Shown: in pieces, positions 26,823-41,536 of the stretch
Layout of the letters: each line of letters begins with the position of its first letter
Position numbering within the stretch: the stretch's first letter is position 1
From: Spirochaetia bacterium
GTDB taxonomy: Bacteria; Spirochaetota; Spirochaetia; SZUA-6; Bin103
Reading direction: 5' to 3'
Assembly: GCA_965203905.1 (NCBI GenBank)
Contig: CBDBDQ010000005.1
Coordinates: 7,648,001-7,712,000, forward strand
DNA length: 64,000 bases
Notes under the pieces: generated by a model
The model's database searches: none
What the model saw: the letters and a program-made list of their open reading frames with translations, nothing else
What the model was told of the DNA's origin: nothing
Made by a program: the position numbers and the translations under genes

Positions 26823-28616
26823 CTACTGGCTCATGGCCTTCAAGTCCTGGTCAATCCAGAGACGGGCGTAGATGGGAGCGCTGTTGCACTGGTTGCACAA
26901 CTCGCCTTCACCGTTGTAACCGATGACCCATGGCTGCGCCGCGGTGAACTGCGGGATCTTGGGACCCCATATGATCTCGTGCTTCTCTATCATGAGCATG
27001 TCGCACTCTTTGACCAGCCGCGCCTCCTCCTCATAGGTGGTGGCGGCGACGATCGCTTCATGCAATGCCGTTTGCGCCGGATCATCCGGAACCAACATGT
27101 AATGCGTCGCATTCGTGTAGCACATGCCGGCAGGGGGATAGTCCAGGCCCAAGAACCCCATCGATAACCCGGGCCAAGTCGCTTCCCTGGCATGGACCAT
27201 CCACGTAGGATGGTCCATTGGGTCCTTCTCCGCGGCAATGCCAACCTCGGCCAGATAGGCAATGACGATGTCGTAATAGCCCGAATCGTGGTAGGAACCG
27301 ACGAATACCATGGGCAGCTCGAATCTCGTGCCGTCCTCGCCGCGCGGATACCCCGCCTCGTCGAGCAGCCGTTCGGCACCCTCCGGGTCGTAGCGCCAGT
27401 ACTGCTTGATCTCCTCGGGCCACTCTTCGAACGGGTTGTTGTACCCGCCGAGGATACCGTCTCCGATGCGCCCCTGGGGCTCCCACTTGCCATGACCCCT
27501 GAAGTAGGTCTCGTTGACGGTCTCAAGATCCAGGGCCATCTGTATGGCGTGCCGCACCCGGATGTCGTCGGTGGGCGAGGGCACGAACGGATTGTACGCC
27601 CGGTAACTGTAGTTCGACCGATAATCCCACGGGTAGAGCCTGATTTCGGGGTTGGTCTCCGCCAGGCTTTCCGCCATTTCGACATTGGCAAAGGCAGCCG
27701 CCGTGATGAGCATGTCAAGCTTGCCCGAACGCAGTGCCGCGGCGACGGTTGCCGGTTCCCGAATGATCAGGTTCGTCAACTCGTCGGTATAGGGCAAGCG
27801 GTTCTCGGGGTACTTCTCGTCGGTGCCCCAGTAGTTGGGATTCCTGGTGTAGGTTATCGAGCTCTCCTCGACCCAGTCCGTTATCTCATAGGGCCCGGTG
27901 CCCACCAGGTTCTGCCAGTCCGCTCTGTTGATGTTGCCGTCTCGCTTGATTACCTCCGGGGGCATCATGTGAGCATTGTTGGCGATCTTCAACGGCCCAT
28001 CGAGGATTGGATGCCGCAACTTGAACACCACCGTCCTCTGGTCGGGGGCCGTTACCGACTCGAGCGGCAGGGCCGCGCTGCGCCCCCCCGTATAGCTAGG
28101 GCTCGGTTCGCTAAAGCCACTGCCCAGACCGAGAAAACGGTGATAGTTGAATACGATGTCATCGGCAGTCAGCTTCCGACCGTTCATCGGTTCCTTGTCG
28201 TGCCAGTGAACGCCCTCGCGGATGCGGAATACGTAGGTCAGCGGGTCGGAAACGTCCCAGCTCTCCGCGAGCTGACCGGTCAGGACAGAGGTCGGCAGAT
28301 ACACCGGCGCAAAGTCGAACGTGTCCCGGCTTATTCCCCAGTCCGCGATGGCGAGCGTCTCGTTGACGCCGCCGATGAAATACGCCGCCCCGCAGCAATA
28401 GGCTGCGTCTATCGAGTTCTCTGCATATCCCGGCTGGGAATAGGTAATTGTTCCGCCGTATTGTGGCGCCGTCACCATCTTTCCGGTGGTGGGGTCGGTC
28501 ACCATTTCCTTCTCGGCGGCGGCCGCCGGTGCCTCTTCGCTGGCAGCGGCCCAGAGGCCGGTCGCGGTCAGAACGAGAACCAGCGCAACCGCGAAGGTCT
28601 TTGTTGCAATGTGCAT
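26823..28616 (-). CDS. Peptide/nickel ABC substrate-binding protein (SBP family 5)
   Basis: Signal peptide, LAESW, GTGPY, NPNYW, RVRHAIQMALD, LLDEAGY. Confidence 0.92.
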   Translation of the reverse strand: MHIATKTFAVALVLVLTATGLWAAASEEAPAAAAEKEMVTDPTTGKMVTAPQYGGTITYSQPGYAENSIDAAYCCGAAYFIGGVNETLAIADWGISRDTFDFAPVYLPTSVLTGQLAESWDVSDPLTYVFRIREGVHWHDKEPMNGRKLTADDIVFNYHRFLGLGSGFSEPSPSYTGGRSAALPLESVTAPDQRTVVFKLRHPILDGPLKIANNAHMMPPEVIKRDGNINRADWQNLVGTGPYEITDWVEESSITYTRNPNYWGTDEKYPENRLPYTDELTNLIIREPATVAAALRSGKLDMLITAAAFANVEMAESLAETNPEIRLYPWDYRSNYSYRAYNPFVPSPTDDIRVRHAIQMALDLETVNETYFRGHGKWEPQGRIGDGILGGYNNPFEEWPEEIKQYWRYDPEGAERLLDEAGYPRGEDGTRFELPMVFVGSYHDSGYYDIVIAYLAEVGIAAEKDPMDHPTWMVHAREATWPGLSMGFLGLDYPPAGMCYTNATHYMLVPDDPAQTALHEAIVAATTYEEEARLVKECDMLMIEKHEIIWGPKIPQFTAAQPWVIGYNGEGELCNQCNSAPIYARLWIDQDLKAMSQ

Positions 28617-28825
28617 AACTCACTCCAGGTGTTTGATTCTGAGAGTAGTGCGTAGCGAATTGCCGCACCCTGCGCTCTCAGCGCCCGCAACGCGGGCGGC
28701 AAACAGAGACGACAATGTGAATCTGTGTAGCGTGAGGCTGTGTCGCGCGCGGCGTGCGACTCATGGATTTACGCCGCGCGCGCGTGTGGTTCTTTGAGTA
28801 TCAATCTGCACCACCTGTGCGCCGG
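28617..28825 (-). ncRNA. Candidate structured cis-regulatory leader RNA, copy 1
   Basis: Stems and blocks shared with 39535..39736: GCGCGCGGCGT/ACGCCGCGCGC, GCCGCCCGCGTTGCGGGCG, TGAGAG/CTCTCA. Confidence 0.55.
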
Positions 28826-29003
28826 GTTGACCGGCAGGGCCGGCGGTCGGTTCAGCGACGGTGAGTCGGGGAACGGGGTGCCAAGACGGTTGCGGTGGTC
28901 GATGAACGAACGTGGACTGAGCCGACGCCACACGGAGCCGGCGGCTTGCCAGGCGCTGAAGGCGAAGGCGCCCGCAAGGCGAGCAACCCGTGCGGTTAGT
29001 GAT

Positions 29004-29102
29004 CTACGGGATGTACGAAAGTCCCAGGGGGGGGGATGTACCGGCGGCGTCACCGGCAAACCGGTCACTGCGCTGGCTGTCGTCGTGCCGCATCATCAGC
29101 AT
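29004..29102 (-). CDS. Putative leader peptide (32 aa) with C9 tract, copy 1
   Basis: MLMMRHDDSQRSDRFAGDAAGTSPPLGLSYIP; GGGGA upstream; homologous to 39254..39376. Confidence 0.45.
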   Translation of the reverse strand: MLMMRHDDSQRSDRFAGDAAGTSPPLGLSYIP

Positions 29103-29123: not shown

Positions 29124-29152
29124 ATTCTCCCATGCCGGTGGCAGACTGTCAA
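29124..29152 (-). promoter_or_regulatory. Sigma70-like promoter for SBP operon 1
   Basis: TTGACA-17-GAGAAT with extended TG; positionally conserved with 39206..39233. Confidence 0.55.
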
Positions 29153-29297
29153 CTGCACCGGCACCGCACCGGCACCGGCACCGGCGTGCGCGGCGTGAGG
29201 GCCGATGGGATTCGTCGTGTGATAGTGTCGTATAGTGTCGGTGTTCTTCGAGGCGGCCGCACCGGCAGCCGGGTTGCCAACGAGGAGGGTTCACCGC

Positions 29298-29705
29298 GTG
29301 CCTGCTGAACTGGAGACGATCATCGAGGTGCTGGAGTCGGATTGCGATCGGCTCGGGCATCTGAACCACGTGCAAGCGGTCAGGATGCTGGAGCGTGCGC
29401 GCGGCCACTGGTACGCCGCCAACGGCCTGCGCGACGCCGGCAGGAACTACGTCCCGGTGGTGGTCAACATCAACTACAACTATCGCCGCGAGTGTTTCCT
29501 CGGCGAGCGCCTGCGCGTCATGACGCGGGCGCAGAGACCGGGGCGCAAGAGCTTTACCCTCGGCCACGAGATCATCAAGCCGGACGGCGCCATTGCGCTC
29601 CAGGGAGCGGCCACGAGCGTGATCATGGACCTGGACACGCGGGTGATCGTTACCGTACCCGAGTGCGTGGCCAGCCAGTTGCCGGCGCCGGAGGCGGCGG
29701 AGTGA
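29298..29705 (+). CDS. Acyl-CoA thioesterase (4HBT/FadM-like), copy 1
   Basis: DCDRLGHLNH hot-dog motif; GAGGAGG RBS. Confidence 0.85.
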   Translation: MPAELETIIEVLESDCDRLGHLNHVQAVRMLERARGHWYAANGLRDAGRNYVPVVVNINYNYRRECFLGERLRVMTRAQRPGRKSFTLGHEIIKPDGAIALQGAATSVIMDLDTRVIVTVPECVASQLPAPEAAE

Positions 29706-31400: not shown

Positions 31401-31524
31401 GATTCTGCTCAGCCGCGTGTGATGGCGGTCACGGCGAGCGCTGCGCTGCGTTGGGCTCGGCGGCGTGCCTTACATGGTCGCCGAGGCGATGGGTCGTGAT
31501 AGTATGTCGTACAGGATTCACTGC

Positions 31525-31932
31525 GTGCCTGCTGAACTGGAGACGATCATCGAGGTGCTGGAGTCGGATTGCGATCGGCTCGGGCATCTGAACCACGTGC
31601 AAGCGGTCAGGATGCTGGAGCGTGCACGCGGCCACTGGTACGCCGCCAACGGCCTGCGCGACGCCGGCAGGAACTACGTCCCGGTGGTGGTCAACATCAA
31701 CTACAACTATCGCCGCGAGTGTTTCCTCGGCGAGCGCCTGCGCGTCATGACGCGGGGCCAGAGGCTGGGGCGCAAGAGCTTTACCCTCGGCCACGAGATC
31801 ATCAAGCCGGACGGCACGATTGCGCTCCAGGGAGCGGCCACGAGCGTGATCATGGACCTGGACTCGCGGGTGATCGTTACCGTACCCGAGTGCGTGGCCA
31901 GCCACGTGCCGGCGCCGAAGGCGGCAGAGTGA
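31525..31932 (+). CDS. Acyl-CoA thioesterase, copy 2
   Basis: Near-identical to 29298..29705. Confidence 0.85.
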   Translation: MPAELETIIEVLESDCDRLGHLNHVQAVRMLERARGHWYAANGLRDAGRNYVPVVVNINYNYRRECFLGERLRVMTRGQRLGRKSFTLGHEIIKPDGTIALQGAATSVIMDLDSRVIVTVPECVASHVPAPKAAE

Positions 31933-39205: not shown

Positions 39206-39233
39206 TTGACGGCAGGCGGCGGCGTGGTAGGAT
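39206..39233 (+). promoter_or_regulatory. Sigma70-like promoter for SBP operon 2
   Basis: TTGACG-16-TAGGAT with extended TG. Confidence 0.55.
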
Positions 39234-39253: not shown

Positions 39254-39376
39254 ATGCGGATGAATCGCCATGACGACTGTCAGCGCGGTGGCCGGCTGGT
39301 GACCCAGCCGGTGGCTTCTACCCGAGTTCTCCCCCCCCCAAGATACCCTATAATTATTTATCAAATAAGCAATTAA
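39254..39376 (+). CDS. Putative leader peptide (40 aa) with C9 tract, copy 2
   Basis: MRMNRHDDCQRGGRLVTQPVASTRVLPPPRYPIIIYQISN; AGGGA upstream. Confidence 0.45.
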   Translation: MRMNRHDDCQRGGRLVTQPVASTRVLPPPRYPIIIYQISN

Positions 39377-39534
39377 GCGCTCTACCGAGAGCACCATACG
39401 CACCCCGGCTCACGCCGTCGCCTTCACCGCCGCCACTACTTCCGGTGGCGCCGGTTCGGTCCATCGCCATGGATCGTCAGCCCTTCTGCACTCTTCCACG
39501 TATCACTCTTTTCGTCCGCGACACCCTGCCGTTT

Positions 39535-39736
39535 GCCGGCATACAGGAGGCACACGAGTGAGACTCAGAGAACCGTAGGCGCGCGCGGCGTGAGCCCGGG
39601 GCGACCCGGCCGAGTCACACGCCGCGCGCTCCGCAAAATGACTCGAGCTGGCCGCCCGCGTTGCGGGCGTGAGAGCAGCCAGGGAGCGGCAATCCGTTCC
39701 GCAATACTCTCAAGAAATCCACCAACGGAGTCAAGT
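39535..39736 (+). ncRNA. Candidate structured cis-regulatory leader RNA, copy 2
   Basis: Same stems as 28617..28825, with a longer loop in the first hairpin. Confidence 0.55.
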
Positions 39737-41536
39737 ATGAAACCTGTAAGAACCACATTGACCTTCGCGGTCGCGTTGGTCCTGGTGCTGACCGCGACCG
39801 GCCTGTGGGCCGCTGCGGCAGAAGAGGAGCCGGCAGCCACCGCAGAGAAGGAGATGGTGCGCGACCCGTCCACCGGCGAGATGGTCGAAGCCCCCCGCTA
39901 TGGAGGGACCTTCACCCATGCCGAGAGGACCGGAGCCGACACTCCTGACACCTGGTTCAGCGGCGGTCAGGCGGCGACGTTCTTCATCAGTACCGTTCTC
40001 GAGAAGCTCAGCGTCGGGAACTGGGCGATCGACAGAGAGGAACATGGCTGGAATACGACCAGCGTACCTCTCTCTGCCTTGAAAGGGGCGCTGGCGGAAA
40101 GCTGGTCACAGCCTGACCCGCTGACCTATGTCTTCAACATCCGGCAGGGCGTCCACTGGCACAACAAGGCACCGATGAACGGTCGGGAGCTGACCGCCGA
40201 TGATATCGTGTTCAACTTTCACCGCTATCTGGGGCTGGGCAGTGGCTTTACCGAGAGCAGCCCGCGTCTCGGGCAACTCGCCGCCTTCTCATTCGAATCG
40301 GTAGAGGCCACCGACGAATGGACGGTGGTCATGAAGCTCAAGGAGCCACGCCTGTTTGCGCTGGAGATTATCATCGACCAGTACAGCAACTGGATGTACC
40401 CCCCCGAGGTCATCGAGGAACACGGCGACGCCCGGGATTGGAGGAACCTGGTCGGCACCGGGCCCTATGAGCTGACTGACTACGTCGAGGGCGTCTCTGC
40501 TACCTTCGACAAGAATCCTGACTACTGGGGCTCCGACGACAAGTACCCGCAGAACCGCTTGCCCTATATTGACCAGATAACGGGCCTGATTATGCCAGAG
40601 GGAGCGACCCGCCTGGCGGCACTGCGCGCGGGAACGCTTGATTACATAGGTACTCCCGGCAACACCCAACTGAGGACGATCGACCAGGTAGAGAGCGTCC
40701 AGCGCATCAGCCCCGACCTGGTGGTGTGGCAATATCCGTATCGGTCAGATAATTCTTTTGGCGTCAACGTCCAGAAGCCGCCCTTTGACGACATCCGGGT
40801 GCGCCAGGCAATGCAGATGGCACTCGATCTCGACACGATCTATGCGACCTATTACAAGGGTTATGGATCTACCAGGCCTCAGGGGGTCTACGGCGAAGAG
40901 CTGAAGGGGTGGACGACCCCCTTCGAAGAGTGGCCCGAAGCGGTCCAGAAGGTCTATACCTACGACCCGGCGGGGGCAGAAGCGTTGCTCGATGCGGCTG
41001 GGTATCCACGCGGCGCCGACGGTACTCGCTTCAAGGCCGTGTTGAGCCACCTCGAGCGGTACGACACCACGTTTGCGGAGTTGGTCGCCGCGCAGTGGGG
41101 TGAGGTCGGTGCCGATGTCGAGGTTCGGGTAACACCGGTGCCTGAGTTTGTCTCCCTCAGAACTGAGGGACTATTTGAGATGATCTCCGCGGAGTTAGGC
41201 GGGCTTCCGAGTCCTTCCGTAGCCGGGCTGGGCGCATACTACACGCACACGTCCTGGGCCCATTCCAACGTGTCTGACCCGGTTTATGACGCCATGTTCG
41301 AAGCCCAACAAAACGCCACCACCGTCGAGGAATCGCGGAGGCTGACGAGAGAGGGATACCTGTACGCGCTGGAGCGGCACTGGAGCATATGGGGCGGCGA
41401 AGTCCCACAGTTCAACGTGAGCCAGCCGTGGGTCAAAGGCTACAACGGGGAAATCTGGTTGGGTGTCGGTCAGCAGGACACCTTCTTCGCCCGTCTCTGG
41501 ATTGATCAGGATCTCAAGGCAGAAATGGGCTTTTAG
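39737..41536 (+). CDS. Peptide/nickel ABC substrate-binding protein (SBP family 5)
   Basis: Paralogue of 26823..28616; MKPVRTT start, GGAG RBS. Confidence 0.92.
   Translation: MKPVRTTLTFAVALVLVLTATGLWAAAAEEEPAATAEKEMVRDPSTGEMVEAPRYGGTFTHAERTGADTPDTWFSGGQAATFFISTVLEKLSVGNWAIDREEHGWNTTSVPLSALKGALAESWSQPDPLTYVFNIRQGVHWHNKAPMNGRELTADDIVFNFHRYLGLGSGFTESSPRLGQLAAFSFESVEATDEWTVVMKLKEPRLFALEIIIDQYSNWMYPPEVIEEHGDARDWRNLVGTGPYELTDYVEGVSATFDKNPDYWGSDDKYPQNRLPYIDQITGLIMPEGATRLAALRAGTLDYIGTPGNTQLRTIDQVESVQRISPDLVVWQYPYRSDNSFGVNVQKPPFDDIRVRQAMQMALDLDTIYATYYKGYGSTRPQGVYGEELKGWTTPFEEWPEAVQKVYTYDPAGAEALLDAAGYPRGADGTRFKAVLSHLERYDTTFAELVAAQWGEVGADVEVRVTPVPEFVSLRTEGLFEMISAELGGLPSPSVAGLGAYYTHTSWAHSNVSDPVYDAMFEAQQNATTVEESRRLTREGYLYALERHWSIWGGEVPQFNVSQPWVKGYNGEIWLGVGQQDTFFARLWIDQDLKAEMGF

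Follow-up and report, generated by a model that had tools for sequence, protein, structure and literature searches.

A candidate repeat-length frame switch in the leaders of an expanded importer family of a Spirochaetia bacterium

Results and Discussion

Two related leaders precede importer operons

The window, by which we mean the whole 64,000-nucleotide stretch of Spirochaetia DNA analysed here, carries two related leaders, designated copy 1 and copy 2, each of which precedes an SBP_bac_5 binding-protein gene and two permease genes. In copy 2 (plus strand) a sigma-70-type promoter-like site (39206..39233; TTGACG, 16 nt, TAGGAT; most leader heads of this family have a -35-like box on their 5' side) is followed by a leader ORF, uORF1 (39254..39376), which starts with an ATG at 39254, 20 nt past the -10 box (ending at 39233), reads MRMNRHDDCQRGGR... 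and terminates at a TAA (39374-39376); as assembled it has 40 codons, which is the short state. Within uORF1 a hairpin (39285..39318; z -2.4, the family mean z being only -1.3) lies just 5' of a C9 run (39331..39339), at which read-through is predicted with C7, C10 or C13. The read-through frame (39373..39561) has its stop overlapping the start codon of a second mini-ORF, uORF2, which together with an AGGAGG (39545-39550) occupies 39545..39578 and is here shortened to VRLREP-stop (39558-39578). A conserved three-hairpin RNA (39579..39711; z -3.0, with two-sided change in only 1 of 27 predicted pairs) separates uORF2 from the binding-protein gene (39737..41536), after which the two permease genes extend to 43516.

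Copy 1 lies on the minus strand and has the same order of elements. Its promoter-like site (29124..29152; TTGACA, 17 nt, GAGAAT) is followed by a uORF1 of 32 codons (29004..29102), also in the short state as assembled and with one additional base before the run as compared with the family; the ATG at 29102 lies 21 nt past the -10 box (ending at 29124), and the ORF reads MLMMRHDDSQRSDR... up to a TAG ending at 29004. Read-through at its C9 run (29027..29035) is predicted with C5, C8 or C11, and the read-through frame (28769..28999) is fused in frame to uORF2 (28769..28816; AGGTGG at 28816-28811, TTG at 28804, then ILKEPHARAA-stop). The hairpin RNA (28640..28768) and the binding-protein gene (26823..28616), whose product is 47% identical to that of copy 2, come next, with the permease genes extending to 24803. 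Re-examination of the sequence bore out the two ORFs, the C9 runs, the promoter-like sites and the spacings given in the preliminary description, as well as its open frame in copy 1, which runs to 28769, ends in LKEPHARAA-stop and would be joined to uORF1 by C8 or C11. That description had regarded LKEPHARAA-stop as the end of a shifted frame, but the element is more than that, forming a mini-ORF in its own right that is led by a ribosome-binding site.

Both window copies are currently out of the read-through frame, copy 2 needing one more base and copy 1 one base less. When the two C runs were compared with Logan contigs, sequencing runs with a small share of words being set aside, zero differences were noticed at both of them in run X1, which may be the window's own sample. 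The sole strain difference at a window run was that of run X3, which at the copy 1 locus carries 21 additional nt at the C run, with the frame kept and 1 other change in 389, at 10 nt from the contig end. RNA run X14 offered short contigs only, one of which, possibly from a paralogue, is without the base at 29058 and would shift the frame of copy 1. At window position 39381 a contig of run X4 has one extra base restoring the family's usual downstream frame, window copy 2 there reaching uORF2 via a frame other than the usual one. Nothing above the curated cut-off was found in Pfam for both uORF1 peptides and both read-through peptides, and Rfam at gathering score gave 0 matches within the window. 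The window also holds two thioesterase-family genes, 98% identical and 2.2 kb apart (29286-29585 and 31513-31812).

The leader belongs to a large family within one genus

A profile of the leader head (promoter plus uORF) gave 63 matches in the 8.0-Mb genome, and the 57 with E below 0.01 were used; these heads lie at 45 loci, seven of which are tandem arrays of 2-4 heads. The uORF2 and hairpin module was present in 33 strong copies among 37 matches, and the binding protein has about 50 close paralogues among 98 BLAST hits in the genome. Among ten genomes of the same genus the leader was detected in six with copy 2 as query and in seven with copy 1, while by BLAST it was found in 0 of 30 genomes outside the genus; the leader profiles had no match upstream of 48 related binding-protein genes of other lineages. 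Relatives are labelled Spirochaetia, and the sequencing runs that hold the stretch include sponge metagenomes. Leaders have also been swapped between genes, as the binding protein closest to that of copy 2 (L151, 91% identical) has another leader type. In the literature we found no description of this leader, and nothing relevant on sponge spirochaete importers together with phase variation, in a search that lay largely outside subscription journals.

The tandem units are promoter-plus-uORF1 heads of ~125 nt (contig G000:C5, 3635698-3635945, 7737314-7737736, 6002862-6003065 and four more loci); the C run is present in the last unit only, and relatives have up to six heads. The number of promoters could vary in such arrays by unequal recombination. 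The head is also present before genes outside the expanded family (G000:C5 4727320, 6734366, 3028740, 10497 and 5288128), which we take, as judged from their sequences, to be a methyltransferase-like gene, ABC ATPases and other binding proteins. Two leaders, near G000:C5 5100072 and 7568111, are interrupted just 5' of the uORF2 ribosome-binding site by an element in antisense orientation, presumably group II intron-like as judged from its domain motifs. Remnants of the end of this element were noticed in other leaders, and the read-through frame is often open across them.

Most heads keep an ATG in the uORF1 frame but the peptide is not under selection

The leader ORF had been proposed to encode a conserved peptide whose shared residues use synonymous codons. 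The quoted synonymous codons do exist, but they are unrepresentative of the family, in which codon-position entropy is flat (0.91/0.98/0.86), and dN/dS across the heads gave an omega of 0.96 in the uORF1 frame against 0.97-1.14 in the other five frames. The set used for entropy and omega consisted of 86 distinct ungapped heads of 111, 20 having been dropped for indels or divergence and 5 as duplicates. Pairwise synonymous differences in the heads numbered 76 against 79.6 expected, which is no excess, and the stop deficit in the head (3.5 vs. 5.9 expected) was not significant. All these selection tests compare present-day sequences along a minimum spanning tree, by which multiple changes are undercounted. 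The omega, the flat entropy and the lack of synonymous excess led us to reject the conserved-peptide reading; as judged from these comparisons the uORF1 peptide is not selected. Of 111 heads, 105 have an ATG within four codons in the frame of uORF1, as against 0 of 111 for each of the other frames; both usual start codons are missing together in 12 heads, against 14.8 by chance (P 0.18), and the position of the uORF1 stop varies widely. The peptide would be a by-product, and only the start, the frame and the end point of translation would matter.

The C run is labile and other repeats take its place

Exactly nine Cs in both copies had been considered special; in fact the 33 heads of the genome with a run of at least 5 C span lengths of 5-20, with up to 55 in relatives, and a random pair of heads agrees in 13% of cases. 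The suggestion of a phase-variable tract fared better and gains comparative support: no other part of the leader is as labile as the run, whose length sets whether uORF1 stops early or reaches the downstream element. Of 16 pairs of near-identical leaders, 15 have runs of different length and 10 differ in frame. Of the 29 C or G runs of at least 9 bases in the genome 17 lie in this leader slot, all of them with C on the sense strand, which greatly exceeds what chance would give (18 long runs were first flagged in leaders, and one, located in a gene fragment, was excluded). Runs of at least 9 C are in frame in 12 of 37 leaders, which is expected if their phase is random, against 23 of 36 for shorter runs (P 0.007); this contrast was not significant in the fresh set of leaders alone (8 of 13 shorter vs. 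6 of 16 longer, P 0.18), and it is shallow when no anchor is used (in frame 35% with 9 or more C, 42% with 6-8 C and 52% with no repeat). A coding C9 at G000:C5 3470737 is frameshifted relative to 15 paralogues, by ordinary phase variation or by assembly error, so that some long runs may be assembly errors as well. Assembly error or neutral slippage would thus account for a share of the run variation.

The leader of L151 carries a 7-base array in place of the C run. Furthermore, 7-mer arrays of several units, 8-mers and one 4-mer were found in or near the slot, with CA repeats in 3 of 62 leaders, and none of these 62 leaders had a 3-, 6- or 9-base array there. The leaders make up 0.6% of the contig and hold 3 of its 6 perfect 7-mer arrays and 4 of its 11 8-mer arrays. 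A point of caution is that in many bacteria long repeats lying outside genes most commonly have seven-base units (PMC4679880). Sixteen repeat cases were examined; the rule found no start in two and an out-of-frame start in one, and uORF2 was unlocated in three, in which one phase ran to about the start of the binding-protein gene. For ten 7-mer leaders the fixed rule picked a start and uORF2 could be located; in each of them uORF2 is reached in one of the three phases, although one open frame of three is not rare in DNA of 66% G+C; seven of the ten are currently in that phase. Several leaders with repeat arrays have heads unrelated to RHDDSQR. Elsewhere on the contig (G000:C5 3237956 and 2839144) a C13 run lies directly 3' of a TTGACC box, and a 22-base run lies near a binding-protein gene; the C13 run resembles promoter-spacer phase variation.

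One frame of three is open from the run to uORF2

Two of the three frames meet a stop in the first 45 nt or so past the run, and the third is open to uORF2; a conserved motif 3' of the run supplies the stop in one frame and usually that of a second frame too. Of 33 leaders, 28 had the read-through frame open as far as uORF2, as compared with 10.9 expected from shuffles, the other five frames being open in 5-11; excluded from this set were 2 mis-hits of the motif and 10 leaders in which uORF2 was not located, and one mis-anchored row was counted as a miss. With the rule fixed beforehand, a fresh set gave 26 of 29 open against 10.5 expected, with 2-12 for the other frames. The fresh loci numbered 66, of which 52 had both modules, and these comprised 29 with the anchor, 19 without it and 4 with uORF2 unlocated; in the 19 anchorless leaders uORF1 reached uORF2 in only 6. 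The three misses of the fresh set appear to belong to the repeat-array group, with another open frame, a reading made after the fact. When no anchor was used at all, 43 of 101 leaders had an assembled uORF1 that reached uORF2, the expectation with the head kept being 21.1; after clustering at 70% the figures were 27.5 of 69 against 16.3 (P 0.0001), both states being present in 9 of 11 multi-member clusters. Of the 43 reaching leaders, fusion to uORF2 is seen in 27, a stop on the uORF2 start codon in 13 and passage in the third frame in 3.

Differences that make a stop in the open frame were fewer than expected (10 vs. 17.9, P 0.03), with no such deficit in the other two frames and no accompanying synonymous excess. 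Neighbours that differ by a net frameshift were both open in 18 of 24 cases against 13.5 with random indels (P 0.02). Since the leaders are kin and have been shuffled between genes, all these P values overstate the significance. Over its length range of 87-653 nt the frame stays open, in spite of net frameshifts and of intron remnants inserted in it; of 29 clean indels in the read-through region, only 11 have a length divisible by three.

uORF2 and the downstream RNA

uORF2 is a mini-ORF, MILKEPHARAA-stop, with its own ribosome-binding site, set in folded RNA before the binding-protein gene. It served as the positive control for the uORF1 test and has a clear coding signal (omega 0.25 in codons 2-6, a third-position excess, and ATG in 67 of 88). 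Many leaders have uORF2 without a detected uORF1 head (151 vs. 108 loci). Its codon 7 (window 39576-39578) varies strongly; in 5 of 49 distinct copies, among them copy 2, a stop stands at this place, which gives a peptide ending Glu-Pro-stop. Covariation is near absent in the downstream RNA because the sequences are too alike, and the hairpin structure therefore rests on folding energy. No intrinsic terminator was found on the sense strand of either window leader, the one hit per leader being on the opposite strand. Rho is encoded in the genome. After the early stop C exceeds G in 89% of 61 leaders; the C skew is 0.15-0.17 there and 0.56 around the run, as compared with -0.06 in the gene. Pairing of the C run with the uORF2 ribosome-binding site was also considered and was rejected, the predicted pairing being 0.001 and the site no more closed than with shuffled upstream RNA.

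A proposed frame switch and its alternatives

The layout that recurs comprises a promoter-like site, uORF1, a repeat with a unit length indivisible by three, stops directly after it in two of the frames, and a third frame open for 100-650 nt, which ends either fused to uORF2 or with a stop on the uORF2 start codon. At the level of sequence comparison the anatomy, the lability of the repeat and the one open frame in three are firm. The feature described earlier is real but was partly misread; instead of a conserved peptide and a fixed C9, it is probably a frame switch, set by repeat length, that serves a large family of importers. We regard a simple-repeat frame switch in a translated leader, that is leader-ORF phase variation, as having a somewhat better than even chance of being correct, with the slippery repeat probably acting as a random on/off switch for each importer. 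Ribosomes would start at uORF1, and slipped-strand changes of repeat length during replication would move the leader among three states, two of them short and one long. In the long one the C-rich leader would be covered by ribosomes, which would be delivered into uORF2 and the hairpins, so that the importer operon would be expressed; in the short ones a C-rich stretch of RNA of 200-500 nt would lie bare and transcription would most likely be cut by Rho. The assignment of the ON state is made by analogy. Since no intrinsic terminator was found, Rho is encoded and the RNA after the early stops is C-rich, polarity combined with ribosome delivery to uORF2 is favoured, and the fit to Rho attenuation is one of composition. 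The variation of the run was seen in contigs, between paralogues, species and one other strain. That uORF2 has a strong ribosome-binding site of its own speaks against the switch. A wider proposal, to which we give somewhat less than an even chance, is that of a portable two-tier cassette, in which a stochastic frame switch built from interchangeable repeats gates ribosomes to uORF2 and the structured RNA and is shuffled among about 45 importer and metabolic operons per genome, which would let a sponge symbiont express a random heritable subset of its very large set of transporters.

Among the alternatives, there may be no switch at all: the leaders would have been co-duplicated and recombined, a single ancestor would have passed on the open frame, the runs would be no more than mutable or mis-assembled sequence, and regulation would lie in uORF2 and the hairpins alone. 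The exchange of leaders between genes (the different leader type before the 91% identical binding protein), the omega of the head, the coding signal lying in uORF2 and not in uORF1, the modest share of indels in multiples of three and the coding C9 that is likewise frameshifted would all agree with this; yet a frame open over 87-653 nt in spite of net frameshifts and intron remnants, the same logic in unrelated heads and unrelated repeats, and the crowding of 17 of 29 long runs into one slot are difficult to reconcile with it, and we consider it unlikely, though it is the strongest of the alternatives. Slippage during expression, by realignment of RNA polymerase helped by a nascent hairpin or by ribosomal frameshifting on CCC, would send a fixed fraction of ribosomes into the open frame, so that repeat length would tune the output of all cells and not divide the population. 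The run follows a hairpin at a distance of 0-6 nt in 44 of 59 leaders, which may be likened to the hairpin-stimulated slippage at T5C5 reported for Roseiflexus IS630 (PMC5009743), and most long runs are out of frame. But the distance of the hairpin spans 0-16 nt and its stability is modest, the genomic run length differs among near-identical leaders, and the 7- and 8-base arrays in the slot fit slippage at replication and not a stuttering polymerase, which makes this account improbable.

The two remaining explanations place the function in the run itself. A proline-sensing attenuator, for which the preliminary description had invoked stalling at polyproline codons, would use the C run as prolines in every frame, and stalling through limitation of prolyl-tRNA or EF-P would refold the leader. 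EF-P is encoded, three or more adjacent prolines occur in 35 of 62 leaders, shifts of the frame before the run are tolerated, as in copy 1, and MgtL acts via proline codons according to the available part of PMC12360218. The run codons are, however, almost all CCC (160 of 187), although the binding-protein genes use CCG most often for proline; consecutive prolines are absent from 12 of 62 leaders, the non-C repeats that replace the run give no run of prolines, and the open third frame is left unexplained. Polyproline stalling is a poor fit and we hold it quite improbable. Least credible of all, with very little probability, is a role of the run as RNA or DNA, whether by pairing with a G-rich partner (a small RNA or the ribosome-binding site) or as a Rho loading site scaled by length. 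The strong C skew around the run agrees with it, and in the accessible text of PMC12721329 the 5' UTR repeats of H. influenzae hmw1A act via RNA structure and G runs are small-RNA targets elsewhere; against it stand the predicted pairing of 0.001 with the uORF2 ribosome-binding site and the exchangeable sequence of the repeat.

Comparison with known leaders

Leader-ORF phase variation has one worked example that we found in the literature, pil1/pil3 of Streptococcus gallolyticus. As far as the available part of PMC3894217 goes, the repeat unit there is likewise not divisible by three and lies inside a leader ORF 3' of the promoter, gain or loss of units moves the stop codon, and the long form reaches a downstream RNA element. 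The leaders described here differ: they carry a C run, or repeats of one of several 2-8-base units, their long form extends 200-500 nt to end at a second mini-ORF, and the cassette serves dozens of importer operons. In the same part of PMC3894217 the pil1 element is a terminator hairpin and both out-of-frame states are long, whereas here one frame of three is long and no intrinsic terminator was found on the sense strand; as the terminator is absent, we file the present leader as a variant and not as a member of the pil1 type.

Leader ORFs that control Rho attenuation (tnaC, speFL, mgtL and cruR, in the portion of PMC12360218 available) are similar in that translation would shield C-rich RNA before transport genes, but those peptides sense a ligand via conserved residues, while here omega is near 1 and the stop is variable. 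A ligand-sensing or stalling leader peptide of the TnaC, SpeFL or MgtL kind was accordingly rejected, conserved residues and a fixed stop position both being absent. The (ATCTTTC)n repeat of Haemophilus influenzae hmw1A is also a transcribed seven-base repeat in a 5' UTR, there controlling a surface gene; it is, however, a graded dial that works via RNase III and a hairpin in the RNA, and the available part of PMC12721329 describes no leader ORF for it. Roseiflexus IS630 has a nascent hairpin directly 5' of a C-containing slippery motif, to which the predicted hairpin of the present leaders may be likened, but its T5C5 is fixed and lies within a transposase gene in the account available (PMC5009743), while here both length and spacing vary.

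If the frame switch is true, leader-ORF phase variation would cease to be a curiosity and become a strategy at the scale of the genome, repeated on dozens of nutrient importers in an uncultured sponge symbiont, and it would offer a reason why such symbionts can afford large expansions of transporters. The design would be compact, with repeat length modulo three setting expression from a short leader. In the low-G+C genomes L157, L176 and L193 the same binding-protein family is expanded with repeated leaders of their own, which carry T runs before the promoter or a 7-base array.
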